DNA of 36,762 bases. Source: a bacterium (GTDB taxonomy: Bacteria; Patescibacteriota; Minisyncoccia; Minisyncoccales; UBA10102). Position 1 is the stretch's first letter, and the number at the start of each line of letters is the position of its first letter. Where the stretch lies: contig JAUYLB010000040.1 of assembly GCA_030699785.1 (NCBI GenBank), positions 1 to 36,762 on the forward strand. The letters are read 5' to 3'. A program made the translations under genes and the position numbers. The notes under the pieces were generated by a model that searched no databases, was not told the DNA's origin, and worked only from the letters and a program-made list of their open reading frames with translations. Below, in pieces: positions 5,886 to 36,762 of this stretch.

Positions 5886-5890
5886 TTTTC

Positions 5891-14481: not shown

Positions 14482-14506
14482 ATGTCGCAGTTATTGTATC
14501 CTCCAA

Positions 14507-14641
14507 ATTACGTAACTTTTTGCTCGGATATATTTTTGCCGCGGACCGTCATAAAATCCTGCTGGATTTTTGACTCGCTCTCGCGCCGTCGCGCTTCCGA
14601 GGGCCGCTACAAAAACATATTCCTCACTAAGTTTCGTAATT
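14507..14641 (-). repeat. ~135-nt hairpin repeat, copy A (inverted orientation)
   Basis: The reverse complement reads ACGAAACTTAGTGAGGAATATGTTTTTGTAGCGGCCCTCGGAAGCGCGACGGCGCGAGAGCGAGTCAAAAATCCAGCAGGATTTTATGACGGTCCGCGGCAAAAATATATCCGAGCAAAAAGTTACGT. It lies between the dnaE stop and the thrS start. Confidence 0.9.
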
Positions 14642-14650
14642 TGGAGTGTA

Positions 14651-22435: not shown

Positions 22436-22440
22436 TAATT

Positions 22441-22893: not shown

Positions 22894-22901
22894 TTTTATT
22901 G

Positions 22902-23036
22902 AATTATAAAAATCAGTGAGGAATATGTTCTTTGGAGAGACCCTCGGAGCGCGACGGCGCGAGAGTGAACCAAAAATTTAGCAGAATTTTATGGTGTTCT
23001 CGGAAAAGAATATATCCGAACGAAAAGTTTATAATT
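22902..23036 (+). repeat. ~135-nt hairpin repeat, copy B (most diverged)
   Basis: AATTATAAAAATCAGTGAGGAATATGTTCTTTGGAGAGACCCTCGGAGCGCGACGGCGCGAGAGTGAACCAAAAATTTAGCAGAATTTTATGGTGTTCTCGGAAAAGAATATATCCGAACGAAAAGTTTATAATT. Confidence 0.88.
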
Positions 23037-23081
23037 AAAAACAATAAAGGTCGGATTATAGGTCTAAAACCCATCGCTTCC

Positions 23082-23435: not shown

Positions 23436-23675
23436 ATGGCCGTACCAAAACAACACCGCTCAAAATCTCGACAAGGACAAAGCAGAATGCACAAGAATAT
23501 CACGGAGCCCTCTCTGGTGTCTTGCGCAAAGTGCAATAAACCAATCTTATCTCACCGCGCCTGTCCTTTTTGTGGCACATACAGAGGAAAAGAGATTGTG
23601 AATGTTCTTGCTGACTCAAACAAGAAAGAGCAGAAACAAAAGGATCGAAAGGTGGCGCGAGAAACCGGAAGGTAA
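23436..23675 (+). CDS. rpmF: 50S ribosomal protein L32
   Basis: MAVPKQHRSKSRQGQSRMH ... C..C ... CPFCG. The start is taken at 23436 within ORF 23358... Confidence 0.88.
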   Translation: MAVPKQHRSKSRQGQSRMHKNITEPSLVSCAKCNKPILSHRACPFCGTYRGKEIVNVLADSNKKEQKQKDRKVARETGR

Positions 23676-23684
23676 CCATTTTTT

Positions 23685-24131
23685 ATGGCAAGTAGGCACC
23701 TCTCCAGATCTATTGTCATGCAGTCCCTGTATGAATGGGATTTTCAACACAATCGAGATCCCAACATGCTCGAAAAAGTTTTAGAGCGCAACCTAGAAGA
23801 GTTTGGTCCTGGACTTGAGGAATCCAATCAACAGTTTGTCCGCTCGCTTGCGCAAGGAGTTTTGGAGCATATTTCACAGCTGGACACCATTATTGAAAAA
23901 GCGGCTCCCGATTGGCCACTCGACCAGATTACTGTGGTAGATCGCAATGTTCTGCGCCTGGGTCTTTTTGAGCTTCTCTATAGCAACAAAGACGAAGTGC
24001 CTCCAAAAGTAGCTATCAATGAAGCCATAGAGCTTGCCAAGAACTTTAGCGGAGAGCCGTCCGGAAGATTTGTAAACGGGGTACTCGGAACTGTGTTTCG
24101 AGAACTCCAAGAACAGAATAAAGAATCATGA
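23685..24131 (+). CDS. nusB: Transcription antitermination factor NusB
   Basis: SRSIVMQSLYEWDF, VDRNVLRLGLFELLY, INEAIELAKNF and FVNGVLG. Confidence 0.9.
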   Translation: MASRHLSRSIVMQSLYEWDFQHNRDPNMLEKVLERNLEEFGPGLEESNQQFVRSLAQGVLEHISQLDTIIEKAAPDWPLDQITVVDRNVLRLGLFELLYSNKDEVPPKVAINEAIELAKNFSGEPSGRFVNGVLGTVFRELQEQNKES

Positions 24132-24841
24132 TCAGTCGCCTGTACGAATCATACAGATTCAATATACTTGAAGAGAACCTTCAGGTCTCATTTATTCAAA
24201 AAGACCTGCTTGTGCAGGGATTTGTGCACCGCTCTTACTTGAATGAAAATCCTGCTATTCCCGTTTCCCATAACGAACGACTGGAGTTCTTGGGAGACGC
24301 CGTGCTAGAGCTTGTGGTAACCGAATACCTTTACAAACACTACCCAGACAAAACTGAAGGAGAGCTGACTTCCTGGAGAGCCGCTCTGGTAAACACCAAG
24401 ATGCTTTCCTCTCTTGCCCGAGATCTGGGATTCAACGATTACCTTCTGCTCTCAAAGGGAGAACAGAAAGAAGAGGGGAGGGCTAGAGAGTTTATTCTTG
24501 CCGATACCTTTGAAGCTTTCACGGGAGCGCTTTACCTTGACCAAGGACTCCAGGTGTGCAAGGATATGATGGTCCGCACCCTCTTGCCTTGTTTGTCTGA
24601 TATTATAGACCAAAAACTGTTCCAAGACGCAAAGTCTCGCCTGCAAGAATTGGCTCAAGAAAGGCTTAGCGTCACCCCAACATACAAAGTGATTCAGGAA
24701 ACAGGGCCCGATCACGCCAAGCGCTTTCAAGTAGGCGCCTACCTGAATGGCGACATGATCGCGGAAGGAGAAGGATTCTCTAAACAAGAAGCAGAAGAAG
24801 AAGCGGCAAAACGAGCCCTTGAAGTAAAAGAGTGGAAGTAA
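24128..24841 (+). CDS. rnc: Ribonuclease III
   Basis: Signature ERLEFLGDAVLELVV plus a C-terminal dsRBD (GPDHAKRF ... GEGFSKQEAEEEAAKRAL). Confidence 0.95.
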   Translation: MISRLYESYRFNILEENLQVSFIQKDLLVQGFVHRSYLNENPAIPVSHNERLEFLGDAVLELVVTEYLYKHYPDKTEGELTSWRAALVNTKMLSSLARDLGFNDYLLLSKGEQKEEGRAREFILADTFEAFTGALYLDQGLQVCKDMMVRTLLPCLSDIIDQKLFQDAKSRLQELAQERLSVTPTYKVIQETGPDHAKRFQVGAYLNGDMIAEGEGFSKQEAEEEAAKRALEVKEWK

Positions 24842-24853
24842 TACGCGAACTAT

Positions 24854-25210
24854 ATGTTAAAAATAAGATTGTTTCGTACAGGAAAAAAAAATCAGCCGTC
24901 GTTTAAGGTTGTTGTGACAAACAAAACAAACGCGCCCGCGGGAGGACGCTATTTGGAGCAGGTTGGATTTTCTAATCCGCTCACCAAAGAAAAAAACTTA
25001 AACACAGAGCGCATTCAATACTGGATCTCAAGAGGAGCAAAACCCTCCGATACCGTGCATAATATGCTTGTGAGCGGGGGAGTGATAAAAGGTAAAAAAA
25101 TTCCCATTCACACAATTGTTCCCGTGCAAGAAAAAGCTCAAGAGACTGTTCCCACGGAGCCCAAAGAGAAGTCCACCCCAGAACCCAAAGAAGAAGAGAA
25201 AAGTGCATAA
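24854..25210 (+). CDS. rpsP: 30S ribosomal protein S16 with a K/E/P-rich C-terminal extension
   Basis: MLKIRLFRTGKKNQPSFKVVV ... GAKPSDTV. Confidence 0.93.
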   Translation: MLKIRLFRTGKKNQPSFKVVVTNKTNAPAGGRYLEQVGFSNPLTKEKNLNTERIQYWISRGAKPSDTVHNMLVSGGVIKGKKIPIHTIVPVQEKAQETVPTEPKEKSTPEPKEEEKSA

Positions 25211-25257
25211 AGGTCGATTGATCATTTTGCATTGAAATCCGTGTATTCAACAGAACT

Positions 25258-25566
25258 ATGGCAGAAGAGAAACCGACATATCAGGACTTTCTTGAATATG
25301 TGATAAAGTCCCTTGTAGATCACCCCGACGTTGTGGAAGTGAGTCGCAAGGTAGATGAAATGGGAGTGCTCTTAACACTAAAAGTGCACCCAGACGATAT
25401 GGGACAGCTTATTGGACGACAAGGATCCACTGCAAGGGCCATTCGAACACTTGTGCGCATTGCCGGCATGAAATCCCAGGCGCGTGTCAATATGAAGATT
25501 GAAGAACCAGAAGGAGGACGTGGAGAAAGCCACAGAAAGGAATCTTTTGACTCGCTTAATTTCTAG
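25258..25566 (+). CDS. KH-domain RNA-binding protein (YlqC / UPF0109 family)
   Basis: LIGRQGSTARAIRTLV (GxxG KH motif). The position after rpsP is conserved. Confidence 0.85.
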   Translation: MAEEKPTYQDFLEYVIKSLVDHPDVVEVSRKVDEMGVLLTLKVHPDDMGQLIGRQGSTARAIRTLVRIAGMKSQARVNMKIEEPEGGRGESHRKESFDSLNF

Positions 25567-25573
25567 ATATATT

Positions 25574-25711
25574 GAATCGCGAAACTCTTTACTCGGATAC
25601 GCTTTTGGAGAGGCACGCTGTAAAATCTTGCTAGATTTTCAGCTCGCTCTCGCGCCGTCGCGCTCCGAGAGGCCCTCCAAAAGCATATCCTTCGCACAAG
25701 TTTCGTGATTC
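25574..25711 (-). repeat. ~135-nt hairpin repeat, copy C (inverted orientation)
   Basis: The reverse complement reads GAATCACGAAACTTGTGCGAAGGATATGCTTTTGGAGGGCCTCTCGGAGCGCGACGGCGCGAGAGCGAGCTGAAAATCTAGCAAGATTTTACAGCGTGCCTCTCCAAAAGCGTATCCGAGTAAAGAGTTTCGCGATTC. Confidence 0.9.
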
Positions 25712-25732
25712 AAAAAATGGATATATTATACC

Positions 25733-25772
25733 ATGAAAACGGAGGCGCCCTATGCGGGCGCACCGTTTTCAT
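25733..25772 (+). terminator. GC-rich hairpin with flanking A- and T-tracts, 13 nt upstream of trmD
   Basis: ATGAAAACGG-AG-GCGCCC-TATG-C-GGGCGC-A-CCGTTTTCAT. Confidence 0.55.
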
Positions 25773-25785
25773 TTAAAATAGCGTT

Positions 25786-26445
25786 ATGAGATTTGATATT
25801 CTTACCATCTTTCCCCAACTATTCTCCTCATTTGCGGAAGAGTCTCTTGTAAAATGCGCAAGAGAAAAAAATAAACTCTCTCTTGAGGTTCATGATCTTC
25901 GATCTTGGACAACAGATGCGCACAAAACCGTTGATGACAAACCGTTCGGCGGGGGACTGGGTATGGTTATGAAGGTAGAGCCCATTCATGGAGCAATCAA
26001 GGATCTCAAGCGCAAAGGTGGAAAGGTTGTGCTCTTTAGTCCTCGTGGTAAAAGATTCACACAAAGTATGGCACAGGAGTTTTCTCGCCAATCTCAACTC
26101 ATTCTCGTGTGCGGAAGGTACGAAGGAGTAGACGAGCGAGTTGCAAAACACCTCGCCGATTATATTGTTTCGTTGGGTCCTTTTGTGCTCATGGGAGGAG
26201 AAATACCCGCCATGGCCATTATAGAAGCAACATCCAGACTTATTCCGGGAGTCGTAGGAAAAGCAGATTTTCTCAAAGAACACATACCCGCAACCGGGGG
26301 ATTTATTGAGTATCCCCAATACACCAGACCAGAAGAATACTCTCCGGAATCAGGAACTGTTTGGAAAATTCCCAAGGTACTTATCTCTGGAGATCATAAA
26401 AAAATAGGGGAGTGGAGGAAAAAGAAAGGAAAGACCCTTCGCTGA
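25786..26445 (+). CDS. trmD: tRNA (guanine37-N1)-methyltransferase
   Basis: MRFDILTIFPQLF, DDKPFGGGLGMVM, VCGRYEGVDERV and SLGPFVLMGGE. Confidence 0.95.
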   Translation: MRFDILTIFPQLFSSFAEESLVKCAREKNKLSLEVHDLRSWTTDAHKTVDDKPFGGGLGMVMKVEPIHGAIKDLKRKGGKVVLFSPRGKRFTQSMAQEFSRQSQLILVCGRYEGVDERVAKHLADYIVSLGPFVLMGGEIPAMAIIEATSRLIPGVVGKADFLKEHIPATGGFIEYPQYTRPEEYSPESGTVWKIPKVLISGDHKKIGEWRKKKGKTLR

Positions 26446-26454
26446 ATTCTTTCT

Positions 26455-26587
26455 ATTGTAAAACTCTGTGAGGAATATGTTTTTGAAGCGGCCCTCGGAG
26501 CGCGACGACGCGAGAGCGAGTCAAAAACTCAGTAGAGTTTTATGACGGTCCGCGGAAAAAATATATCCGAACAGAGAGTTTTGCAAT
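26455..26587 (+). repeat. ~135-nt hairpin repeat, copy D
   Basis: ATTGTAAAACTCTGTGAGGAATATGTTTTTGAAGCGGCCCTCGGAGCGCGACGACGCGAGAGCGAGTCAAAAACTCAGTAGAGTTTTATGACGGTCCGCGGAAAAAATATATCCGAACAGAGAGTTTTGCAAT. Confidence 0.92.
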
Positions 26588-26642
26588 TCAGTATGAATCT
26601 GTTGTCAAGGCGAGTTCTTTGTGGTACAAGAAAGGAGTCATA

Positions 26643-26727
26643 TGGGTCGGTGGCAGAGTGGACAATTGCACGTGGCTGTAAACCACGCGGCCTTGCGCCT
26701 ACGGGGGTTCGAATCCCTCCCGGCCCA
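26643..26727 (+). tRNA. tRNA-Tyr (GUA), long variable arm
   Basis: Acceptor GGGTCGG/CCGGCCC, anticodon stem ACGTGG../CCACG with loop CTGTAAA, a long variable arm, and a T arm containing TTCGAAT. Confidence 0.88.
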
Positions 26728-26758
26728 CATTCGTATCAATGCGTGCGCGCCCGAGTAG

Positions 26759-26829
26759 TTCAACGGCAGAACGGATCCATGGTAAGGATCAAACAGGAGT
26801 TCGACTCTCCTCTCGGGCTCCCGGCAAGA
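26759..26829 (+). tRNA. tRNA-Thr (GGU)
   Basis: Acceptor GCCCGAG/CTCGGGC, anticodon stem GATCC/GGATC with loop ATGGTAA, T arm AGGAG-TTCGACT-CTCCT. Confidence 0.88.
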
Positions 26830-26840
26830 TTCATGGTTGT

Positions 26841-26880
26841 GGGTTATAAGTTATAAGTCATTAGTTATAAGTCATCTATT
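26841..26880 (+). repeat. C-depleted GTTATAAG tandem tract immediately upstream of rpmG
   Basis: GGGTTATAAGTTATAAGTCATTAGTTATAAGTCATCTATT. It shares GGGTTATAAGTTAT with 29308-29321. Confidence 0.7.
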
Positions 26881-27054
26881 ATGGCAGCAAAAAGAAAAAA
26901 GGTATTCGTAAAGCTTAAGTGCGAGACATGCAAGGATGTGAACTACTTCACCAGAAAATCCAAGATACTCACATCAGAAGGAACCAAGTTAAATCTCAAA
27001 AAATTCTGCGCCTCTTGCAGAAAGCACGTCAAGCATGCTGAATCAAAGAAGTAG
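26881..27054 (+). CDS. rpmG: 50S ribosomal protein L33 (57 aa, below the ORF-track length cutoff)
   Basis: My translation is MAAKRKKVFVKLKCETCKDVNYFTRKSKILTSEGTKLNLKKFCASCRKHVKHAESKK, which shows the CxxC..CxxC L33 pattern. Confidence 0.88.
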   Translation: MAAKRKKVFVKLKCETCKDVNYFTRKSKILTSEGTKLNLKKFCASCRKHVKHAESKK

Positions 27055-27078
27055 TATTCCTGTCATACAGCAGGAATT

Positions 27079-27151
27079 GGGGATGTGGTGTCAATGGCTA
27101 GCACAACGGTCTCCAAAACCGTTAGTCTAGGTTCGAATCCTAGCATCCCCG
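27079..27151 (+). tRNA. tRNA-Trp (CCA)
   Basis: Acceptor GGGGATG/CATCCCC, anticodon stem ACGGT/ACCGT with loop CTCCAAA, T arm CTAGG-TTCGAAT-CCTAG. Confidence 0.9.
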
Positions 27152-27156
27152 CTCCT

Positions 27157-27654
27157 ATGCAGCATTATCCGCTCTTGCTATATCCCAATCCCATCTTGCA
27201 TAAAAAGGCCCTTGCGGGAGAGGGGTTTACTCAAGAGGTGCACAACCTTATATCTCATATGCAAGACGTTATGAAAACACATAACGGAGTTGGTCTTGCT
27301 GCTCCCCAGGTTGGGATTTCTCTTCGGCTTATCCTTGTACAGAATGGAGAAACCGTTGAAGCCTGTATGAATCCGCAGGTTCTCTCTTCAAGCAAAGAAC
27401 GAGAAGTAGATACAGAGGGTTGTTTGAGTATTCCGGGATTATGGATTCCTATCTCTCGTCCCGCGCGTATCTCCGTTTCCTACCTTGCCAAAGATGGAAA
27501 AGAGGTAACACGTGATCTAAAAGGATTTCTTGCTCGCGTGTTTCAGCATGAAATTGATCACATTAACGGTAAACTCATTATTGATCATTTGGGATTCTGG
27601 GAAAGATTTAAATTAAGGAAGCGCCTAAAAAATCTTGGGGAAAAATCTCTATGA
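27157..27654 (+). CDS. def: Peptide deformylase
   Basis: GVGLAAPQVG, EGCLSIPG and HEIDHING. The start is set at MQHYPLL (27157) because the ORF-track start at 27085 lies inside tRNA-Trp. Confidence 0.93.
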   Translation: MQHYPLLLYPNPILHKKALAGEGFTQEVHNLISHMQDVMKTHNGVGLAAPQVGISLRLILVQNGETVEACMNPQVLSSSKEREVDTEGCLSIPGLWIPISRPARISVSYLAKDGKEVTRDLKGFLARVFQHEIDHINGKLIIDHLGFWERFKLRKRLKNLGEKSL

Positions 27655-28658
27655 AACATCTTCTCTTTGTGTTTGTGGGGGGAGTTGTTGTGTTTTTGGG
27701 CGGATTTTTATATACAAACACTCCTGCTAACCCTTCATCAGATGGAATACGGGAGGTACATATCCTTTCTGGGATGAAGGGATCTGCCATTGCAAACCTT
27801 TTATACAAAGAAAATCTTATTCGATCTCCTTTTGCTTTTCGTGTCTTCTCTATAGCAATGCGGGTAAACTTTCGCCTTCAGGCTGGAACCTATGACCTGT
27901 CTCCTTCTATGAGTACCGTGGAAATTATACATATGATTGAGCAAGGTACCATTGCCACAGAAACCTTTACTATTCGTGAAGGATGGGGACTGGAGCAGAT
28001 TGCCGACATGCTTGTTGCAAAAAATCTTATCCCAACACAAGAAGACTGGTACAATCTTGTTGGAAAGCCAAGAGCTAATGGGGGAGTGGATTTCTCTCAA
28101 ACATTTTCCGTTTTAAATCACAAACCCCCAGAAGCAAATCTTGAGGGATTTTTGTTTCCTGATACGTACACCATTCCTCGATACTCATCACCCGAATATA
28201 TTCTTGCTCGTATCCTCACAAGAATGCAAGGAAAATATGAGGCAAATATACTGTCAGAATTAGGTGATCGCAACCTGTTTGAAGTGCTTACTATTGCCTC
28301 CTTACTAGAACGAGAAGTAAAAACCACAGACGACAAGCGCATTGTCGCCGGAATCATACAGAATCGGTTACAAGCCGGTATACTCCTGCAAATTGATGCC
28401 ACAATAGCCTATATTACAGGTAAAACAGATTTTCGCACCGCGCCCGAAGATCTGCGCATTGATTCTGCATATAACACATATCGCTATGTCGGCCTGCCAC
28501 CAGGCCCCATTGCAAATCCAGGCATGCAGAGCATATGGGCAGCGCTAAATCACAAAGATACTCCGTATTTCTTCTACCTGTCCACCCAGGAAGGAAAAAC
28601 CATATTCAGCCAAACTTTTGAAGAGCACCGCAAAATGATACAAGAACATCTTAAGTAG
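27651..28658 (+). CDS. mltG: Endolytic murein transglycosylase MltG (YceG family)
   Basis: An N-terminal TM helix is followed by LEGFLFPDTY, ASLLEREV and YNTYRYVGLPPGPIANPG. Confidence 0.9.
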   Translation: MKHLLFVFVGGVVVFLGGFLYTNTPANPSSDGIREVHILSGMKGSAIANLLYKENLIRSPFAFRVFSIAMRVNFRLQAGTYDLSPSMSTVEIIHMIEQGTIATETFTIREGWGLEQIADMLVAKNLIPTQEDWYNLVGKPRANGGVDFSQTFSVLNHKPPEANLEGFLFPDTYTIPRYSSPEYILARILTRMQGKYEANILSELGDRNLFEVLTIASLLEREVKTTDDKRIVAGIIQNRLQAGILLQIDATIAYITGKTDFRTAPEDLRIDSAYNTYRYVGLPPGPIANPGMQSIWAALNHKDTPYFFYLSTQEGKTIFSQTFEEHRKMIQEHLK

Positions 28659-28698
28659 GACTCTTGCCTCTCTCACGGTTAAAGGTAATAATAGAAAA

Positions 28699-29004
28699 AT
28701 GAAAGATTTTTTAACATTTATACGAGAACGAGGGGTTGCAGGGTTTGCAATTGGCTTCATTGTGGGGGGAGCGGTCTCCAAGCTGGTTACTGCGCTTGTT
28801 GTTGATATCATTAACCCCTTGCTGAGTCTTGTTCTTCAAAACACGGGTCAGCTTGCGCAAGCAAAGTTTGTTATTGGAAACGCCGAAATCCTCTGGGGGC
28901 ATTTTCTCATGGCCCTCATTGACTTTCTTATCCTTGCATTTGTTGTATATTTTCTGTTCAAAAAGCTTGGACTTGAACGGCTAGACGCAAAAAAGAAAAC
29001 ATAG
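28699..29004 (+). CDS. mscL: Large-conductance mechanosensitive channel
   Basis: MKDFLTFIRERGVAGFAIGFIVGGAVSKLVTALVVDIINP. Confidence 0.9.
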   Translation: MKDFLTFIRERGVAGFAIGFIVGGAVSKLVTALVVDIINPLLSLVLQNTGQLAQAKFVIGNAEILWGHFLMALIDFLILAFVVYFLFKKLGLERLDAKKKT

Positions 29005-29062
29005 CGAAACTATTTTTGGGGTGTGATCTTTGCAATGCCGTGCCCGTCACAAAAAAGTAAGC

Positions 29063-29100
29063 AGTACAATACTGTATACAATTGTATACAGTATTGTACT
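29063..29100. repeat. Unique 38-bp perfect palindrome
   Basis: AGTACAATACTGTATACAA|TTGTATACAGTATTGTACT, with 19 + 19 nt and no mismatch. Confidence 0.9.
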
Positions 29101-29121
29101 TTGGTAATGAGAATATCTTTA

Positions 29122-29150
29122 CCGGGCAAAAGAATATTGTGCGATTTATG
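29122..29150 (+). repeat. Partial third copy of the G-family 3' motif, abutting the rplJ -35 box
   Basis: CCGGGCAAAAGAATATTGTGCGATTTATG compared with G1 CCGAATCAAGGAAATATTGTGCGACATTATG. Confidence 0.55.
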
Positions 29151-29153
29151 TTC

Positions 29154-29182
29154 TTGACATAGCAAGAGTGAGATGCTAGAAT
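29154..29182 (+). promoter_or_regulatory. Sigma70-type promoter of rplJL
   Basis: TTGACA at 29154-29159, a 17-nt spacer, and TAGAAT at 29177-29182. Confidence 0.6.
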
Positions 29183-29188
29183 GTTTAT

Positions 29189-29345
29189 ATATCCGCAGAC
29201 AGCAGGCACCCCGTAAGACCTGCCGAGGATAAGCTTTATCTGTGTTGGTAAGCTTATATTGTCTGCGAAAGCAGGCTTTTTTGTTTAAAAATCTAGGTCG
29301 CAGTTCTGGGTTATAAGTTATCAGTTGTTCGTTAATAGTTAATGT
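29189..29345 (+). promoter_or_regulatory. Structured rplJ 5' leader, a possible L10-leader-type autoregulatory element
   Basis: Closing stem CGCAGACA (29194-29201) with TGTCTGCG (29260-29267). Inner hairpins GCAGG/CCTGC and ATAAGCT/AGCTTAT. A second GCAGGC (29271-29276) is followed by T6. Confidence 0.45.
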
Positions 29346-29861
29346 ATGCCAAAAACAAAAGCGCAAAAAGAGGGGATTGTAGAGCAAATTCGGGGCCTGT
29401 TAGACAAGAATCCTTCGGCTCTGGCCTTTGTAGATTTTAAGGGGATTCGGGTTAAGGAATTCTCCCGACTTCGCAAAGAATTGCAAGAAAGTGGTGGAAA
29501 GCTCATGGTAGCCAAAAAAACACTCCTTGCAAAGATATTTAAAGAAAAGGGAATACATGTAGATCCGCACATCCTAGAAGGACAGCTTGCGCTTGCGCTG
29601 GCATTTCAGGATCCCATAGAAGTTATAAAGCGCGTACACGAATTTAAAATTGACAAAGAAACCCTTAAAGTTCTTGGAGGATACATGGAAGGGGAGTGGT
29701 ACGCTCCTGAACAGGTACAGGCAATAGCTTCGCTGCCACCACGGCAGGCTCTATTGGCCCGACTGGTTGGCACCATTGCCTCGCCTCTTTCCAATACCAT
29801 TGGTGTCCTACAAGGAACCATCAAAGGTCTGATAACCGTATTAAGTAAAGCAAAAGCATAA
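29346..29861 (+). CDS. rplJ: 50S ribosomal protein L10
   Basis: 171 aa with the typical L10 N-terminus ([12 protein letters not shown] ... [19 protein letters not shown]). It is followed 4 nt later by rplL. Confidence 0.93.
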
Positions 29862-29865
29862 CATC

Positions 29866-30297
29866 ATGACAGAAGAAAAAGAAACAACAACCAAAGAGGT
29901 AGTTGAAGTACCGGAAAAGTTTAAAAAGTTGGTTGAAACCGTAGAGCAAATGAGTGTTCTTGACCTTTCCGAACTGGTAAAGGTTCTTGAAAAGAAGTTT
30001 GGCGTTTCGGCAGCAGCCCCTATGGTAGTCGCGGCAGCGCCCGCGGGAGCAGCAGCTCCAGAAGCAGAAGAAGAGAAGAGCGCTTTTGACGTTGAACTCT
30101 CTGCCGTGGGAGACCAGAAAATTGAAGTTATCAAGATTGTGCGCGATGCCACGCAAAAGGGATTAAAAGAAGCAAAAGACCTTGTAGACGCGGCGGTAAC
30201 AGCCCCTCAAATGCTCAAGGAGCAGGCCAAGAAAGAAGATGCCGAAGACCTCAAGAAAAAGCTTGAGGCGGTAGGAGCAAAAGTAACACTCAAGTAA
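29866..30297 (+). CDS. rplL: 50S ribosomal protein L7/L12
   Basis: Ala-rich hinge [23 protein letters not shown] and C-terminal domain [24 protein letters not shown]. Confidence 0.95.
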
Positions 30298-30306
30298 ATA
30301 TTTTGT

Positions 30307-30440
30307 ACTACAAAACTCGGGCGAGGGATATGTTTTTGAAACGGCCCTCGGAGCGCGACGGCGCGAGAGCGAGTCAAAAACTCAGTAGAGTTTTATGACG
30401 GTCCGTGGAAAAAATATATCCGAGCAAAGAGTTTTGCAAT
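30307..30440 (+). repeat. ~135-nt hairpin repeat, copy E
   Basis: ACTACAAAACTCGGGCGAGGGATATGTTTTTGAAACGGCCCTCGGAGCGCGACGGCGCGAGAGCGAGTCAAAAACTCAGTAGAGTTTTATGACGGTCCGTGGAAAAAATATATCCGAGCAAAGAGTTTTGCAAT. Confidence 0.92.
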
Positions 30441-30459
30441 GCGTAAAAGATGGTTTTGA

Positions 30460-32346
30460 TTACCGCAGTGAGAGGGCAAAGACTCCCGTTGAGGTAGAGA
30501 ACAGCAGCATAGAGTCCGACAGCAGAGCAATGCTGTTGGCTCTTTTGTTTGGAATCTCAATCTGGCGTATACCTTTTGCATCTTTTTGAGCAATAACCAC
30601 CCTTTCTCCTTCCTGATCTAAAAGAGCAAGGAAAGGAAGATCTCTTTGTGTTTGTATGGCTGATATGAATAGGGGAGGAACAGAAACAATATTCATGTCT
30701 TCCATATACGCGCCACGGTAGTAGCGTTGTAAAAGACTGCCCCCAGTTGCTACCCAGATATTCCCATCAATGGCCATATCTAACGCTCCCACAGGACGAA
30801 AAGCCGATCCCGAATGAAGCCAAGGAGTAGGAAAAGAAAAAGCAGGGTCTTCATAGCGCTGAACATTACCATTTGTTGCATCTAGAATATACAGATAAGA
30901 AAGATACCCCACGATAGAGCTTGGAATAAAGTTAGAGGGAAGTCCAGACTCTCTATTTTTTACCTCTTTTCCCTCTATCCAGTAGAGGCGTCCGTCTTGC
31001 CCCAGAAAAAACCCAATCTCTTCTACAAAGGAAACAGAAATCATGGGGGTGTCTGTTTCAAACACAAAGGGATCTTTTTCTCCCTTTTCCCACGCAAGAA
31101 TATGAGAAGTCGTGGGGGAAATAGCATATACAACACGTTCGTTGGCTGCAATAGAATATGATCCTTCTTTGGGAAAAGAGAAGAGAAGCTCCACGCCCAA
31201 CGGTTTTTCTATGCCCGTTACAATGCGGATACGCTCTTCGGCTAAAGAAAGAAGATTGAGCACGCTTCCACCACTTTCTTTATAGGGCAAGAGAAAGCCT
31301 TTTGCTTCTTGGAGCTTCTTGTACGCTTCCATTTTATTTTCCTGCTCATGATCTTGCAAGGCCAGGTCAATAAGTTCTTCTGCCATGGCAACAGCTTGTC
31401 TTGCCTCTCTTTTTTCTTTGTACCCGTCAACCCATCCAAAAAACAAAGATCCTATAAAAAGAACAACAACAAAAGTAAAGAACAAAGAGAGTGGGTGACG
31501 GTATTCCCGTATTTTTTGGTACCAGCTGTGCTTCTGTACCAAAGACGCTAGTGAAAGATTTGTTCCCTTCTTTTTGTTTCCAAATTTCCACAAAAGAGGT
31601 TTGCGCAACAAGAGAGCAGCTTTAGAGAGCGGAGTTTCGGGAGCCAATGCGTCTTGCACAAACATGGTAGTAAGAGTACCCGGAACACCAGCCACTTCTT
31701 TTCTGCGCTCTTGAAAAATTTCGTGGAGCTGTTTTTCGTTTTGTACAGAAGGAAGCTGTTCTAAAATACCCTGCTTGGTACACTCTTGGTAGAGGTTGTG
31801 AGTTACCACCAGCACTTTGTCTCCGGGTAGCGCGGACCCAGAGACAATACTGCCAAATGACGGCCCCACACCGGATTCTTTTTTAGAAGATTCTACGGTT
31901 TTTTGAATATCAATAAGAGAAGTGCTTCTTGCCATAAGCACCTTTATGTTACCCATTGTAGAGAAACGAAAAGGAGAGCTTGACTGATCTTGGCTTGCCG
32001 TAAACACAAGAACGGCCACGTGCAGGTTGCCAATCCAGTCCACGCTTCCCTTTTTTACCTCTGCTTTAAGGTAGGCATTTCCCGCCCGAAGAGCAAGCTG
32101 AAAAAAGGTTTCTGGCGTTTCTTTTTTCTTTACCTTCTTGCCGGCATTTTTGTAATACTCGTCTCGAACAACATGGGCAAGACGATCCACAAAACGAGAA
32201 TGAGAAGCAAGCGCGCTTGTTACTTCAACAACAAAGTACATGCTCCCCGCGGACTTTTCTTGATCCGTTTTTCCTTCAAAAGAAAAGCTCTTTGATATTC
32301 TATCTTTTGCCCGAGGGTTAAAAAGAAGTTCAACAACTTTTAGCAT
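30460..32346 (-). CDS. Large hypothetical single-pass membrane protein
   Basis: About 628 aa, with the start set at MLKVVELL (32346) because the ORF-track start overlaps tRNA-Val. It has a central TM helix (LSLFFTFVVVLFIGSLFFGWV) and a C-terminal half with repeated beta-strand-like segments. Confidence 0.7.
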   Translation of the reverse strand: MLKVVELLFNPRAKDRISKSFSFEGKTDQEKSAGSMYFVVEVTSALASHSRFVDRLAHVVRDEYYKNAGKKVKKKETPETFFQLALRAGNAYLKAEVKKGSVDWIGNLHVAVLVFTASQDQSSSPFRFSTMGNIKVLMARSTSLIDIQKTVESSKKESGVGPSFGSIVSGSALPGDKVLVVTHNLYQECTKQGILEQLPSVQNEKQLHEIFQERRKEVAGVPGTLTTMFVQDALAPETPLSKAALLLRKPLLWKFGNKKKGTNLSLASLVQKHSWYQKIREYRHPLSLFFTFVVVLFIGSLFFGWVDGYKEKREARQAVAMAEELIDLALQDHEQENKMEAYKKLQEAKGFLLPYKESGGSVLNLLSLAEERIRIVTGIEKPLGVELLFSFPKEGSYSIAANERVVYAISPTTSHILAWEKGEKDPFVFETDTPMISVSFVEEIGFFLGQDGRLYWIEGKEVKNRESGLPSNFIPSSIVGYLSYLYILDATNGNVQRYEDPAFSFPTPWLHSGSAFRPVGALDMAIDGNIWVATGGSLLQRYYRGAYMEDMNIVSVPPLFISAIQTQRDLPFLALLDQEGERVVIAQKDAKGIRQIEIPNKRANSIALLSDSMLLFSTSTGVFALSLR

Positions 32347-32418
32347 AATTCTAGTATACAGAACTTTTAAACATTTGGAAAATATGATACAGATAGAGAA
32401 AGTACATTCCGCCGGCTG

Positions 32419-32490
32419 GGGCACTTAGCTCATCGGTAGAGCGCTTCGTTCACATCGAAGAGGTGACAGGTTCGACACCTGTAGTGCCCA
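32419..32490 (+). tRNA. tRNA-Val (CAC)
   Basis: Acceptor GGGCACT/AGTGCCC, anticodon stem CTTCG/CGAAG with loop TTCACAT, T arm ACAGG-TTCGACA-CCTGT. Confidence 0.9.
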
Positions 32491-32550
32491 CCCCGTTAGA
32501 GTTTGACTCTGTAATGTGCAATAACCCCGCCTTAATGAGATTAAGGTTTT

Positions 32551-32580
32551 ATATAATTCTCACATATGTGAGAATTATAT
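32551..32580. terminator. 30-bp perfect AT-rich palindrome followed by a T-rich run
   Basis: ATATAATTCTCACAT|ATGTGAGAATTATAT followed by TTGTTTTTGTT. It is a possible tRNA-Val terminator. Confidence 0.5.
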
Positions 32581-32650
32581 TTGTTTTTGTTGTCTTAACT
32601 CAATACTGTTTTGTATCGCTCTGACTGCCAATCGGTAGCTGTATCTAAAA

Positions 32651-32688
32651 TTGCGTCAAATTTCAACCATGGTGAGAATTTGACGCAA
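32651..32688. repeat. 38-bp palindrome, family P, copy 2
   Basis: TTGCGTCAAATTTCAACCATGGTGAGAATTTGACGCAA, with 2 mismatches to perfect symmetry and to copy 1. Confidence 0.85.
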
Positions 32689-32811
32689 AAGATTTTCTGA
32701 GACAGTTTTAAGATAACGTGTTGGTTCTTGATGTTTGCCCTTGATGATTCTATTGGGGGCTGTTTTTGTTTGGCTTACATTGCCTGTGCATAACCCTTGC
32801 ATAACGGGTAC

Positions 32812-32841
32812 TTGACGGGGTGCTACGGAGTGGGATATAGT
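32812..32841 (+). promoter_or_regulatory. Putative promoter of the mraZ (dcw) operon
   Basis: TTGACG at 32812-32817, an 18-nt spacer, and TATAGT at 32836-32841. Confidence 0.45.
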
Positions 32842-32876
32842 AATAACCAGATGGAAAAAAGTGGAAAGAAGTGGGA
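32830..32876 (+). promoter_or_regulatory. MraZ-box-like direct repeats (GTGGRA at about 10-nt phasing)
   Basis: GTGGGA at 32830, ATGGAA at 32851, GTGGAA at 32861 and GTGGGA at 32871. The last three are exactly 10 nt apart and lie between the -10 and the mraZ ATG. Confidence 0.55.
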
Positions 32877-32879
32877 AAT

Positions 32880-33308
32880 ATGTACATTGGAGAATACCGA
32901 CACACCATAGATGAAAAACGCCGCCTTTCTGTTCCTTCTAAGTTTCGGAAGGAGTTGGGAAGGGGAGCGGTTATCACAAGAGAGCTAGACAACTGTCTTG
33001 TTATTTTTCCTATGCGTGTATGGGAAGAACGGGCAAAAAAAATTGGCATGCTCTCCGAATCCCGCAAAGAGGCAAGGGGATTTGGACGTATCAAACTTGC
33101 GGGGGCGGCTCTTGTAGAATTCGACAAGCTTGGACGCATTCTGGTACCCAGCCACCTGGCAGAGTACGCGGGGCTGGAAAAAGATGTGGTGGTGGCGGGA
33201 ATCTACAACCGGCTAGAGGTATGGGACTCCAAAAGGTGGGAAAAGTATCAAAAAGAAATGGAAAAGAATATGGAGCAGATGGCTGAAACATTAGGAGAAC
33301 AGATATAG
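32880..33308 (+). CDS. mraZ: Transcriptional regulator MraZ
   Basis: MYIGEYRHTIDEKRRLSVPSKFR and a second SpoVT/AbrB-like half (DKLGRILVPSHL). The ATG at 32880 is preferred over the GTG at 32871. Confidence 0.92.
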   Translation: MYIGEYRHTIDEKRRLSVPSKFRKELGRGAVITRELDNCLVIFPMRVWEERAKKIGMLSESRKEARGFGRIKLAGAALVEFDKLGRILVPSHLAEYAGLEKDVVVAGIYNRLEVWDSKRWEKYQKEMEKNMEQMAETLGEQI

Positions 33309-33310
33309 GC

Positions 33311-34204
33311 ATGCACATTCCCGTTCTTTTACAAGAAGTGTTGGCCCTGCTGGACCCAAAAGAAAACCAGCATGTTATTGACTGCACCGCCGGAGAAGGA
33401 GGACACGCCCTTGCTATTCTTGAAAAAACAGCTCCCAAGGGAAAGGTGCTTGCCATTGATTGGGATACCGAGTCAATCGCCAAACTAAAAAAGAAGATAG
33501 CGAGCGTGCCACAGGCAAAAAATCGAGTTGTGTTTGTAAACGACTCCTACGCGTCTCTTGCCAACATTGTAGAAAAAGAAAAGTTTGGGCCCGTACACGG
33601 TATTCTACTGGACCTTGGCTTCTCTTCTTTTCATTTAGACGAGAGCGCCAGGGGGTTTGCCTTTCGTAAAGAAGAACCCTTGGATATGCGGTACAATCCC
33701 CACAATCCCATGACTGCCGCCAAGCTGTTAAATTACCAGAGCAGGGGAGACCTGGAGTGGATATTTAAAAAGTATGGGGAAGAGAGATACGCGCGCCGTA
33801 TTGTGGAAGAGATTGTGACAACCAGAGCAAAAACTCCCATTGAAAAGACCACACAGCTGGTAGAAATTATTGAACGCTCCACCCCCGCGACATATCGCAA
33901 ACAGCGACTACACGCGGCAACCAGAGTGTTTCAAGCTCTTCGCATAGCGGTAAATAATGAGCTAGAAAATCTTGAGGCCGTTCTACCCCAAGCAAGAGAT
34001 ATTCTGGAACCGGGAGGCAGATTGGCCGTTATCTCGTTTCATTCACTGGAAGATCGCATTGTAAAACACTTCTTTAAAAACGATCTAATTTTGACCCCAC
34101 AAACAAAAAGACCCGTTATGGCAACACAAGAGGAGGTTGATTCAAATCCCAAATCAAGGTCGGCAAAACTTCGAGTGGCGATAAAAACAGCAAACGCAAC
34201 CTAG
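33311..34204 (+). CDS. rsmH: 16S rRNA (cytosine1402-N4)-methyltransferase
   Basis: MHIPVLLQEVL, DCTAGEGGHA, LLDLGFSS and ISFHSLEDRIVK. Confidence 0.95.
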   Translation: MHIPVLLQEVLALLDPKENQHVIDCTAGEGGHALAILEKTAPKGKVLAIDWDTESIAKLKKKIASVPQAKNRVVFVNDSYASLANIVEKEKFGPVHGILLDLGFSSFHLDESARGFAFRKEEPLDMRYNPHNPMTAAKLLNYQSRGDLEWIFKKYGEERYARRIVEEIVTTRAKTPIEKTTQLVEIIERSTPATYRKQRLHAATRVFQALRIAVNNELENLEAVLPQARDILEPGGRLAVISFHSLEDRIVKHFFKNDLILTPQTKRPVMATQEEVDSNPKSRSAKLRVAIKTANAT

Positions 34205-34205
34205 T

Positions 34206-34526
34206 ATGAACACCAAGAACGTATCTGTTTCATTCCGATTTCTTCCCCTAATCACAAAATTGGGCATGGTCGCGCTATGTGGAAGCATTTTACTATACGT
34301 CTTTCAGGTAAGTTTTTTAACCCAGCAGGCGTATCACATTTCTTCCTTGGAGCGCGACATTGCCAAAACACAGGAACATCTTAAAACCCTGTATGTTTCA
34401 AATACAAAAAGTCTCTCCCATACAGAACTCCAGGAAATGGCAGAGCAACGCCAGTTCACACGCGCCGAACGCATTGTCTACTTGCGCCTCTCAGACAGCA
34501 CAGTTGCGCAGGCGCTCCAACAGTAA
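34206..34526 (+). CDS. FtsL-like small bitopic cell-division protein
   Basis: 106 aa with one TM helix followed by a coiled-coil-like segment. The call rests on its conserved position between rsmH and ftsI. Confidence 0.6.
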   Translation: MNTKNVSVSFRFLPLITKLGMVALCGSILLYVFQVSFLTQQAYHISSLERDIAKTQEHLKTLYVSNTKSLSHTELQEMAEQRQFTRAERIVYLRLSDSTVAQALQQ

Positions 34527-36233
34527 ATGACAAGAGGTCTTTTTGCGCACTGGAGGGAGTATCTTGTTCTTGCATGCATCATTATGTTTGGATTTATGGT
34601 GATTGCCAAGCTTGCCTCCCTTCAAATTTTCAATCACGGATTATATAAAGCTCTGGCGCAAGGCCAGCAACAAAAAAGTTCCCTTCAGGTAGGGGAGCGA
34701 GGCACTATCTATATGCAAGACAAGCAGAGAAGGTTGGTGCCCCTGGCAACCACACATGATATTTCATTTCTCTATGCTTCTCCTCAAGATGTTGAGGATA
34801 CCAAAAATACGTCTACCGCTTTGGCCATTATTTTAGAACAGAATCAAGAAACTATCTTTTTGCGCCTAGAGCAAAAAGATCGTTTATTCTCTCAACTTTC
34901 GCGCCAACTCACCCAAGAACAAGAAGAGATGGTGCGCGTAGCAAACCTTCCAGGCATTCATATTGGAAAAGAAGCAAGGCGCCTCTATCCTCAAGGAACG
35001 CTTGCCTCTCACGTGGTTGGGTTTATCAATCAGGACGGCATGGGACAGTACGGATTGGAGGCCTACTACCACGAAATTCTTCAGGGAAAAGAAGAATTAT
35101 TAGACATGACTCAAAATCCCGCAAGATACCTTAGACAGGCATTTGGATCAACCCCAGAACGAGGCGCCTCTCTTGTTCTTACCATTGATTCAGGAATCCA
35201 GTCATTTGCCGAAACAGCTCTTGATAAAACTGTAGAACGTTTGAACGCCAAAGAAGGAACCATCATTGTGGCAGACCCTTTTACCGGAAAAATTCTCGCT
35301 CTTGCCACAACTCCTCGATATGATCCAAATGAGTACACCATGGTCTCAAACTTTTCTCTGTTTATAAATCCTGCCACGCAAAATCTGTATGAGCCGGGTT
35401 CTGTTCTTAAGGCACTCACCATGGCAGCCGCGCTGGACAGAGGTGTTATCACTCCAGATACTCTATATAAAGACACGGGAAGTGTGCGCATTGGAGGAAG
35501 AACAATATCAAATTACAACAATAGGGTGTTTGGAGAGCAGACCATGACACAGGTACTGCAATTCTCTATTAATACGGGAGCAGTATTTGCCCAGCAACAA
35601 CTCGGAGACAGCGCGTTTATGGAGTACCTGGAGCGGTTTGGCATTTTTGAAAAAACAGGCATTGATTTATCGGGAGAAGCATTTTCTCGAAACACCGAGT
35701 TTAAAAAAGGATACGCGATTAATTTTGCTACTGCCTCGTTTGGACAAGGAATTGAAATGACCGCCATGCAAGTTGTGCGCATATATAGCGCGTTTGCCAA
35801 TGGAGGATTTTTGGTGCAACCTCACCTTGGAGAAAAGATTATTGTAAACGGAGAAGAACAAGTCTTGGAATATCCTGTGTCTATAACCGCTGTTCTCTCT
35901 CCAAAAGCAAGCGCGCAGATTACCCACATGCTTGAACGCGTATTAGAAGACGGATTTGGCAAACAGGCTCGTATCCCTGGATATAAAATGGCAGGAAAAA
36001 CAGGAACTTCTCAAATTGCCTGGTCGGCCCTGGGAATTCAAAAACCAGGATACTCCGATCAAAGCATACAGTCATTTGTGGGATATGGGCCCACGTCCAA
36101 CCCACAGTTTGTTATTCTGATTTCTCTAAGAGACCCCCAAACCAAGACCGCCGAATACTCCGCCATGCCTCTTTACAAAGAGGTGGCGCAATATATTCTT
36201 GATTACTACGCTATTCCTCCAGACGCTGACTAA
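34527..36233 (+). CDS. ftsI: Penicillin-binding protein, class B transpeptidase (FtsI / PBP2-like)
   Basis: An N-terminal TM helix, a PBP dimerisation domain, SxxK (GSVLKA), SxN (ISNYNN) and KTGT (GKTGTSQ). Confidence 0.9.
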   Translation: MTRGLFAHWREYLVLACIIMFGFMVIAKLASLQIFNHGLYKALAQGQQQKSSLQVGERGTIYMQDKQRRLVPLATTHDISFLYASPQDVEDTKNTSTALAIILEQNQETIFLRLEQKDRLFSQLSRQLTQEQEEMVRVANLPGIHIGKEARRLYPQGTLASHVVGFINQDGMGQYGLEAYYHEILQGKEELLDMTQNPARYLRQAFGSTPERGASLVLTIDSGIQSFAETALDKTVERLNAKEGTIIVADPFTGKILALATTPRYDPNEYTMVSNFSLFINPATQNLYEPGSVLKALTMAAALDRGVITPDTLYKDTGSVRIGGRTISNYNNRVFGEQTMTQVLQFSINTGAVFAQQQLGDSAFMEYLERFGIFEKTGIDLSGEAFSRNTEFKKGYAINFATASFGQGIEMTAMQVVRIYSAFANGGFLVQPHLGEKIIVNGEEQVLEYPVSITAVLSPKASAQITHMLERVLEDGFGKQARIPGYKMAGKTGTSQIAWSALGIQKPGYSDQSIQSFVGYGPTSNPQFVILISLRDPQTKTAEYSAMPLYKEVAQYILDYYAIPPDAD

Positions 36234-36267
36234 GCCTTTTCAAAAGCCAAAATATAAGGTATCTTGA

Positions 36268-36353
36268 ACTACGAAACTCGGGCGAGAGATATGTTTTTGA
36301 AACGGCCCTCGCAGCGCGACGGCGCGAGAGCGAGTCAAAAACTCAGCAGAGTC
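36268..36353 (+). repeat. ~135-nt hairpin repeat, copy F, left part (truncated after the apical loop)
   Basis: AACTACGAAACTCGGGCGAGAGATATGTTTTTGAAACGGCCCTCGCAGCGCGACGGCGCGAGAGCGAGTCAAAAACTCAGCAGAGTC. Confidence 0.88.
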
Positions 36354-36621
36354 GGGGCGCAAAGTACATACAAACATAAGATTTAGAAGCTTCTGCGTGA
36401 TATGATTTCAAGGCGCGACGACGATGGAGTAGCCAGAGCTACTTCAAGGAGGAGCAACGCAGAAATCAGTCACGCAGGAGCTTCCCAAAGGGCGGGCCTC
36501 TTTTACCCATCTTCTGCGTTGCTTGTCGCTCATGTGCCGTTTGGCACACATTACTCCTCGCGCCTTGAAGCTGGATAAAAGAGGCTCCGCTAAACTAATG
36601 TTTGTATGTGCTTTGCGCCCC
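36354..36621 (+). repeat. 268-bp element bounded by terminal inverted repeats, nested in repeat copy F (MITE-like or structured RNA)
   Basis: The terminal inverted repeats are GGGGCGCAAAGTACATACAAACATAAGATTTAG and CTAAACTAATGTTTGTATGTGCTTTGCGCCCC. The interior holds two inverted modules and no ORF. Confidence 0.75.
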
Positions 36622-36723
36622 CAGCGGCTCTCGGAGCGCGGCGGCGCGAGAGCGAGTCAAAAACTCAGCAGAGTTTTATGACGGTCCGCGGAAAAAATAT
36701 ATCCGAGCAAAGAGTTTTACAAT
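36622..36723 (+). repeat. ~135-nt hairpin repeat, copy F, right part
   Basis: CAGCGGCTCTCGGAGCGCGGCGGCGCGAGAGCGAGTCAAAAACTCAGCAGAGTTTTATGACGGTCCGCGGAAAAAATATATCCGAGCAAAGAGTTTTACAAT. Confidence 0.88.
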
Positions 36724-36733
36724 GAAGAACACC

Positions 36734-36762
36734 ATGAAGACTCTTGTTATTGTTGAGAGCCC
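36734..36762 (+). CDS. topA: DNA topoisomerase I, 5' end only (runs off the window)
   Basis: MKTLVIVESP matches the characteristic TopA Toprim N-terminus (LVIVESPAKAK). An in-frame ATG at 36722 overlaps the repeat end. Only about 10 codons are visible. Confidence 0.5.

Follow-up and report, generated by a model that had tools for sequence, protein, structure and literature searches.

A structure-defined palindromic repeat family of Paceibacteria, multiplied in one genome and probably spread as a non-autonomous element

Introduction

What is the long hairpin that recurs between the genes of a small bacterial contig, each time around the same short and asymmetric core? The question is raised by a stretch of 36,762 nucleotides (nt) from a member of the Patescibacteriota (GenBank assembly GCA_030699785.1, contig JAUYLB010000040.1, forward strand), referred to here as the window, in which one such hairpin follows rplL, the gene for ribosomal protein L7/L12. 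A preliminary description, made from the letters alone, had placed six loci of one dispersed family of about 135 nt in the window and had offered three candidates for its nature: a structured small RNA (sRNA) or 5'/3' untranslated region (UTR) module, a protein-docking site, or a non-autonomous mobile element. Genomes of Paceibacteria and other bacteria of the Candidate Phyla Radiation are about 1 Mb in size, and we know of no repeat families described from them.

On balance, we believe that the element is a non-autonomous, structure-defined palindromic repeat akin to REP/BIME elements and to the Rickettsia palindromic elements (RPEs), which occurs throughout Paceibacteria and has multiplied in this genome, most likely by spreading as selfish DNA. 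The observations behind this view are repetition, structure, covariation, strand bias, empty comparable sites, copies inside genes and a nested insertion. Among the three candidates, the mobile element fits best, given the empty sites, the in-frame copies, the nested insertion and the contigs that break inside copies. What had looked like a feature of one streamlined genome is a local subfamily of a Paceibacteria-wide family.

Copies of the element in the window

The six loci hold seven copies or part-copies (A to E, F1 and F2) against a chance expectation of 0, as counted with a degenerate 28-nt pattern that also admits copy A, whose core has one inserted A. The core itself, CTCGGAGCGCGACGGCGCGAGAG, was found with up to three mismatches at 22943, 25647 (minus strand), 26494, 30347, 36308 and 36630, and not once in 100 trials with dinucleotide-preserving shuffles. 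A covariance model built from nine copies, R1, scored the five intact window copies at 130-158 bits and the parts F1 and F2 at 60 and 92 bits, and it detected no further copies in the window. A repeat search also connected the loci through direct and inverted matches of 82-143 nt; when the outermost arms are counted, the element measures about 143 nt here, slightly more than first estimated.

All five intact copies fold as had been drawn, into a long imperfect outer stem, a side hairpin formed by the core and an apical hairpin of 11 base pairs (bp) with a 4-nt loop and one bulged A. Their free energies range from -40 to -73 kcal/mol, with z scores of -5.2 to -9.4 relative to shuffles. The core differences listed in the preliminary description are likewise present: one substitution each in D (G to A), F1 (G to C) and F2 (A to G), and the inserted A in copy A. 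Every copy in the window is intergenic and nearly fills its spacer, the neighboring pairs being dnaE/thrS, a DUF5671 gene and rpmF, khpA/trmD, trmD/tRNA-Tyr, rplL and a convergent open reading frame (ORF), and ftsI/topA. Copies B to E start 4-6 nt past the stop codon of the low-coordinate gene, the element at locus F starts 30 nt past it, and the high-coordinate end of copy A lies 6 nt from the dnaE stop codon.

Copy A (14502..14644, minus strand) is situated between the dnaE stop (14651) and the thrS start (14481), both genes being assigned by Pfam; its core with the inserted A begins CTCGGAAGCGCG..., and it scores 152 bits with R1 (E 3e-37; -54.3 kcal/mol, z -7.0). Copy B (22899..23040, plus strand), the window's most diverged (130.5 bits; -40.1 kcal/mol, z -5.2), begins 5 nt past the DUF5671 stop codon, lies upstream of rpmF (L32) and holds an exact core at 22943-22965. 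Copy C (25571..25713, minus strand) lies between khpA and trmD, antisense to both, and its arms are unlike those of the other copies yet still complementary to each other (146 bits; -72.6 kcal/mol, z -9.4). Copy D (26451..26592, plus strand; 156.7 bits, -55.1 kcal/mol) separates trmD from tRNA-Tyr, and its G-to-A substitution falls at the pair closing the core mini-hairpin. Copy E (30303..30445, plus strand) occupies the space between the rplL stop and the stop of a convergent ORF of 654 amino acids, and scores 158.4 bits (-54.6 kcal/mol, z -7.0).

A family found throughout Paceibacteria

The strict 28-nt pattern matched six copies in species-representative genomes, five of them from a fragmented metagenome-assembled genome (MAG) belonging to the window's species and the sixth from a MAG of Candidatus Yonathbacteria, and gave 0 matches in the metagenome collection. 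There the family surfaced only with a relaxed core: the core-only pattern matched at least 120 metagenome contigs, and R1, applied to metagenome loci, gave 104 matches at E<=1e-8 in 99 sources. Most of the relaxed-core loci have the same layout, with unrelated arm sequences and a G+C content of 0.33-0.73. The hosts that could be named are Kaiserbacteria (from the RsmH of locus L087), Nomurabacteria, Paceibacterota and the Parcubacteria group (from the PcrA of L101) and Yonathbacteria; the TrmD of the window is closest to Paceibacteria proteins, and many of the samples are 0.1-µm groundwater fractions.

Density varies, with 7 copies or part-copies in the 37 kb of the window and about 12 extra copies in some 670 kb of flanking sequence elsewhere. 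Over their gap-free common stretch of 118 nt, copies D and E reach 95% identity, and between the window and MAG C24 identity rises to about 92% (copy A and L006), which points to recent spread or homogenization; copies from other genomes share only the conserved module.

The family appears to be undescribed. In keeping with the preliminary description, which recognized no named family in it, no Rfam family accounts for the element: no window copy matched at the gathering score, nor did the whole window at E<=5. Among 20 diverse loci searched at E<=1, only MIR8562 (33 vs 211 bits) and Pedo-repair (28 vs 150 bits) overlapped elements, and both matches are far below threshold. A phage origin was considered and rejected, as the core and the terminal repeat of the element nested at locus F are both absent from IMG/VR viral contigs. 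A literature search, including one by the core sequence itself, found no description of the family, and a 2024 review of prokaryotic MITEs (miniature transposable elements with inverted repeats) does not mention these bacteria (PMC10969869).

A branched structure with a fixed module

Across the family the unit is a quasi-palindrome of 115-150 nt that takes the shape of a Y, a three-way junction on a long stem, and the junction holds the core mini-hairpin and the apical hairpin with its bulged A. In the 104-sequence alignment, standard pairs are found in 94.9% of cells, against 60.2% in column shuffles and 37-49% with slid partners; being fitted to the model, this alignment favors the structure, but the margin is still very large. 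Double-sided changes occur in 49 of 49 modeled pairs, with a covariation score of 0.677 against 0.159, so that the arms do covary around a conserved asymmetric core, as had been proposed. RNAalifold applied to MAFFT alignments gave the same structural picture. The apical hairpin (helix 9) is paired in 97.5% of cases, and all 11 of its pairs are doubly changed across the 104 copies. Its sequence is thus free and its geometry is kept: 4 pairs, a bulged A, 7 pairs and an AGCA-type loop.

The core is constrained in a different manner. Its stem, GCGC/GCGC in most copies, becomes GCCU/AGGC in L013 and GGCC/GGCC in L018, and in four copies inside PcrA genes it reads GACC/GGUC, GGCC/GGCC, GAUU/AGUC and GGCU/AGCC; the closing helix CUC/GAG becomes CGC/GCG in L083. 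In the core-stem variants, the flanks CUCGNAG...GAGAG and the loop GACG are constant. These compensatory variants (L013, L018, L083, L131-L134) set the register as a 3-bp helix, a 5'-GNA/5'-GA internal loop, a 4-bp stem and a GNCG loop. An alternative register, CGCG-ACGG-CGCG, was dropped for GCGC-GACG-GCGC, which the same variants back. A kink-turn was also rejected, as it needs a 3-nt bulge and a G-A step, and the core has only 3 nt between the CUC helix and the GC stem on its 5' strand. The core had been called near-invariant, and this is correct for the loop and the flanking purines, which are fixed, whereas the 4-bp stem can covary.

Two further motifs accompany the core on its own strand. 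In the 5' arms GCGAG outnumbers its complement CTCGC by 32 to 3, with a peak about 26-30 nt 5' of the core; in the 3' arms the counts are 30 for CGAGC and 9 for GCTCG, and the peak lies about 50-55 nt 3' of it. Both boxes stand at the feet of the stem in many subfamilies. They were considered as target-site duplications and rejected, because the left and right boxes resemble a consensus and are not identical in pairs, and because in the window subfamily they lie inside longer arms. Copy E contains the complete set, all on the plus strand: the GCGAG box at the foot of the main stem (30321..30325), an exact core (30347..30369) that forms the CUC/GAG closing helix, the GNA/GA purine loop, the 4-bp GC stem and the GACG loop, the apical hairpin GTCAAAAACTC-AGTA-GAGTTTT(A)TGAC with its bulged A (30373..30399), and the CGAGC box directly 3' of the main stem (30421..30425).

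Strand bias and orientation

The mismatches within the stems differ between the two strands. When the 5' arm was aligned to the reverse complement of the 3' arm and all mismatches were scored alike, the core strand held 125 G·U-type and 38 A·C-type mismatches (108 and 22 without the window's own family); G·U-type mismatches were in excess in 47 elements and the reverse was seen in 7. A feature acting only as a duplex would give equal numbers.

Orientation with respect to genes is unbiased, with 16 co-oriented and 24 anti-oriented copies in tandem contexts. A UTR module co-oriented with genes, to which the window copies seemed to point, was therefore rejected, since the pattern is lost across the family. 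The G·U to A·C ratio is 20:11 in copies co-oriented with their genes and 44:9 in anti-oriented ones. The bias thus does not flip with gene orientation, and a promoter within one arm could not yield a transcript that holds the whole stem; for these reasons the folded form is unlikely to be read-through messenger RNA (mRNA). Folded single-stranded DNA appears to be a likelier form than RNA. No promoter consensus was found on the window copies, and in the region 22000-36762 none of 27 terminator-like sites falls on an element.

Empty sites and copies inside genes

In the closest relative, represented by L007 (TrmD 77% identical), sites C and D are both comparable with those of the window and both empty. 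The khpA-trmD spacer measures 64 nt there and 219 nt in the window, and no room is left for an element between trmD and tRNA-Tyr. The other contigs that encode the window's L7/L12 and KhpA all stop inside the repeat, and the exact penicillin-binding protein 2 (PBP2) sequence, sought for exact junctions, had no match on record; the nearest PcrA relatives are only about 62% identical.

Although the element is strictly intergenic in the window, as had been described, this does not hold for the family: 13 of the 104 copies lie in frame, in both orientations, within uninterrupted ORFs of 107-1178 amino acids. The host ORFs encode DnaE, PolA, PcrA/UvrD, a class I aminoacyl-tRNA synthetase and an LTD protein. 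In DnaE the HHH_6 domain is interrupted by the copy, and the protein is about 50-88 residues longer than the DnaE of the window; for DnaE, PolA, PcrA and the class I aminoacyl-tRNA synthetase together, the gain is put at 40-50 residues. The core is read in several frames, as SRSATARE, SRADALR or LAPSRCE, which indicates that its conservation acts at the level of the nucleic acid.

Two of the genes concerned hold altered copies. In one pcrA orthologue (P0148; L135 4043-4117), a decayed relic scoring 7.9 bits with R1 stands at the site shared by PcrA orthologues; its outer arms still pair, and the core and apical hairpin are replaced by a plain hairpin. One dnaE gene (L088) contains two elements, an intact one at 3755-3879, right after the PHP domain, and a degenerate one at 5885-5993, at the common HHH_6 site.

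A search for a partner gene among the neighbors of the copies returned housekeeping genes. Clustering of 840 flanking ORFs and Pfam annotation of 150 flanking ORFs revealed no recurrent partner, and no flanking gene family was seen more than three times among the 150. The window had been described as free of transposases, and none adjoins the approximately 100 other copies either.

A nested element at locus F

Locus F had been described as a split copy. It does consist of two parts on the plus strand, but it is not a simple split, since a second element is nested inside the apical hairpin. F1 (36264..36351; 59.8 bits with R1) contains the 5' arm and the core, runs through the 5' half of the apical hairpin and ends after ...CAGCAGAG. 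The nested element (36352..36621) is 270 nt long, strongly structured and bounded by 30-bp terminal inverted repeats, GGGGCGCAAAGTACATACAAACATAAGATT; it has no Rfam match at E<=10 in a search of the locus. F2 (36622..36728; 91.8 bits) begins with a second core, followed by a complete apical hairpin and the 3' arm, whose end overlaps the topA start codon at 36724. A nested element 96.6% identical to this one is present in a related MAG (L005 3422-3689), at the same apical point and in the opposite orientation. There it simply replaces TTTT, whereas the insert of the window is bordered by an imperfect duplication, 49 nt long, of its host element's core region, which a simple staggered-cut model fails to explain.

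The same place is a junction between genome arrangements. The window ends exactly 141 nt, the assembler's k, past the junction of insert and F2, and the end of L003 (1-141) has exactly these 141 nt (36622-36762, the whole of F2 included) as part of an intact element between mfd and topA. L002, a contig of a related MAG, begins at the insert/F2 junction (L002 1-141). The gene before topA is thus ftsI in one arrangement and mfd in the other, which is either a structural polymorphism or an assembly join at the repeat. Taken with the window, the junction contigs L002 and L003 suggest a population that holds alternative arrangements meeting at the locus F element. Contigs of three assemblies end inside copies.

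An oversized copy is found at L085 13620-13815, with an enlarged central part that holds two extra hairpins between the core and the 3' arm and no ORF; its stem is flanked by the usual GCGAGC boxes. The apical region hence tolerates expansion. The idea of an autonomous version carrying a gene between the arms was dropped, as the one oversized copy examined, that of L085, contains only the extra hairpins.

How the element may spread, and what else it could be

The element may be pictured as a long stem of free complementary sequence that bears a fixed recognition module on one strand only, the module being formed by the GCGAG box at the 5' foot, the 23-nt core, the hairpin of fixed geometry and the CGAGC box at the 3' foot. 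It would be copied or moved in trans by an enzyme encoded elsewhere, which would recognize the module on the folded, core-bearing strand. The folded form would most likely be single-stranded DNA, comparable to the substrates of the IS200/IS605 TnpA, of RAYT on REP and of IntI on attC. New copies would land in short spacers just past stop codons and occasionally in tolerant protein loops, to be translated there, and established copies would serve as recombination junctions and as landing pads for the second small element. Three parts of this scheme are inferred: movement in trans, a folded form of single-stranded DNA, and the enzyme's identity.

Several observations weigh against spread as selfish DNA. 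Neither a target-site duplication nor an exact point of insertion could be established, the one relative with empty sites being too diverged. A tblastn search of about 1 Mb of flanks for Y1 or RAYT proteins gave no match better than E=0.3, in a weak test with IS200 TnpA and an E. coli RAYT as queries; a Pfam scan of 150 small flanking ORFs showed no transposase. In the window subfamily, paired arms extend beyond the CGAG boxes, which therefore are not the ends of the element there. The core strand lies on the C-rich strand at 43 loci and on the opposite one at 25 (p = 0.04, with loci that are not independent), and IS608-type elements have the opposite strand preference. Five PcrA orthologues from different genomes, four of which are 62-64% identical to the fifth, carry the element at one position and in one orientation, and 21 of 50 pairs in these copies, including three core-stem pairs, are changed on both sides. 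This looks like long-term maintenance of the structure in place, unlike a purely selfish dead copy, and it could reflect host benefit or gene conversion from other copies. At least four lineages have a copy at a DnaE site near residue 820, with unrelated arms and in both orientations. The PcrA and DnaE sites may result from in-place selection, gene conversion or repeated hits on a few tolerant protein loops; because these data do not separate the three, our confidence in a purely selfish element is only moderate.

A more specific proposal, which we put forward tentatively, is that the core, the CGAG boxes and the fixed hairpin form the module of a new structure-specific enzyme, distributed throughout Paceibacteria and acting on one folded strand of DNA or RNA. 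If true, this would mean a new system by which single strands are transposed or recombined, or else one domesticated for a role in the host, and such a role would account for the retention in place, with compensatory changes, in pcrA and dnaE.

It seems to us unlikely that the element is a structured host RNA, transcribed with the neighboring genes or antisense to them, in which the core docks an RNA-binding protein or nuclease, the duplex is a substrate of RNase III, and the whole sets mRNA stability or punctuates operons. The 3:1 preference for G·U over A·C on one strand would suit such an RNA, as would the very strong covariation in all helices, the structure kept in place in PcrA orthologues and the purine-rich internal loop and fixed loops, which resemble protein-binding RNA motifs. 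Five of the six window loci are co-oriented with the gene whose stop codon precedes them (copy C being the exception), and RNases are known to process Correia and ERIC elements in their RNA form (PMC10969869). Yet co-orientation is missing across the family (16 vs 24), the wobble bias is as strong in anti-oriented copies, and the window copies have neither a promoter or terminator consensus nor a consistent gene association. These results weaken the sRNA or UTR module of the preliminary description, as do the lack of an Rfam family match, the in-frame copies of either orientation in essential genes, and the sites left empty in the nearest relative.

Less probable still is a retro-mobile, SINE-like element, whose sense RNA would fold and be recognized at the core by a reverse transcriptase before a copy is returned to DNA. 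Candidate enzymes would come from diversity-generating retroelements or group II introns, both of which are reported to be common in these bacteria. The strand-specific G·U bias and the invariant module on one strand only are consistent with this idea; the three-way junction seems to share its overall layout with retron non-coding RNAs, and an Avd-like gene is annotated at L131 20598-20978. However, the families listed for the flanking ORFs include no reverse transcriptase, neither a poly-A nor any other feature for 3' priming is seen, a full sense transcript would need an outside promoter while gene orientation is random, and no data require an RNA step. We give an equally low probability to a double-stranded or cruciform docking site for a chromosome-organizing or topology protein, kept for the benefit of the host, with the CGAG boxes and core as iterons; BIMEs, which bind IHF and gyrase, would be the model. 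Three to four CGAG boxes at fixed spacing on one strand would fit such a site, together with a core that is invariant over class-level divergence and a position that is conserved in PcrA and recurrent in DnaE. Binding to a duplex would, however, produce neither the G·U bias nor compensatory changes in the stems, and the element is absent in the nearest relative and varies widely in density (7 in 37 kb vs about 12 in about 670 kb).

Other features of the window

The ORF convergent with rplL next to copy E (30460-32424, minus strand; 654 amino acids) has no Pfam match, and rpoB is not downstream of rplL. On the other side, the segment 29154-29291 opens with a promoter-like site, TTGACA-17-TAGAAT extended by TG, that is the best in the region scanned. 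It is followed by an L10 leader match just under threshold (40.9 vs 44 bits) and then by a terminator-like hairpin at 29261-29276; the segment probably represents the rplJL leader, and just upstream of it, at 29063-29100, there is a perfect palindrome of 38 nt. A different, near-perfect palindrome of 41 nt, AATTGCGTCAAATTTCAACCATGGTTGAAATTTGACGCAAA, occurs twice (20819-20859 and 32649-32689), the two copies being 93% identical and both intergenic; it may serve as an operator or represent another family of small repeats. Short repeats of the type GTTATAAGT are present at 26836-26886, after the tRNA-Thr gene, and at 29303-29339, just upstream of the L10 gene.

Significance

Since contigs end inside copies in three assemblies, the element limits the reconstruction of genomes, and the residues that copies add to DnaE, PolA, PcrA and the class I aminoacyl-tRNA synthetase affect protein annotation. 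Copies also serve as junctions at which the genomes of these organisms vary in structure. The family represents a natural experiment in which arms vary freely around a 23-nt module fixed at class level, with about 100 copies that saturate covariation. It offers a handle for finding the protein that reads the module, and allows mobility by a folded single strand, as in REP/RAYT, IS200/IS605 and integrons, to be tested in a large group of uncultured bacteria.

Comparison with known systems

The RPEs offer a functional analogy. They are likewise palindromes of about 100-150 bp in a reduced genome, with no known mobilizing enzyme, and they too occupy spacers as well as unrelated housekeeping genes, where they are inserted in frame and translated (PMC10969869). 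The Paceibacteria family shows the same combination of 100-150-bp palindromes in spacers and in frame inside genes. The likeness is one of function only, as RPEs belong to another host phylum and differ in composition. The Paceibacteria family further differs in its invariant, asymmetric 23-nt core and class-wide three-way junction, in arms that are free to covary, and in orthologous in-gene copies that keep their structure by compensatory changes.

REPs are imperfect palindromes of 20-40 nt with a conserved 5' GTAG, and RAYT is a Y1 HUH transposase whose gene is typically flanked by REPs. With REP/BIME-RAYT systems the family shares high-copy extragenic hairpins, a conserved single-strand motif beside a variable stem, a role as target for the insertion of small elements and, probably, activity as a folded single strand. 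It departs from REP in its length of 115-150 nt, its branched core, its CGAG boxes and the absence of a GTAG motif, and REPs are strictly extragenic, whereas the family is so in the window but has 13 of 104 copies in genes.

Correia, ERIC and bcr1-type MITEs resemble the family in size, in long inverted arms that form one hairpin, in their location at gene ends, and in inversion, nesting and effects on transcripts (PMC10969869). Those elements are defined by conserved terminal inverted repeats and target-site duplications; in the Paceibacteria family, by contrast, arm sequences change from genome to genome, no duplication was observed, and conservation is confined to an internal part on one strand. 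A classical MITE derived from a DDE insertion sequence was rejected because the arms differ between genomes and no parent element occurs among the flanking ORFs.

The last group of relatives in design consists of attC sites, the ends of IS200/IS605 elements and the attP of CTX phage, in which structure is conserved over sequence, one strand folds and bulges are fixed. Folded single-strand substrates of the attC type are 60-150 nt long. Unlike attC, the family carries GCGAG and CGAGC at the feet of its stem in place of the R''/R' boxes (RYYYAAC / GTTRRRY), and it is dispersed among and inside housekeeping genes, with no cassette arrays beside an integrase. The family thus fails the defining tests of REP, of a classical MITE, of attC and of an intrinsic terminator, and what sets it apart from all four is a recognition module on one strand that is fixed across the class.

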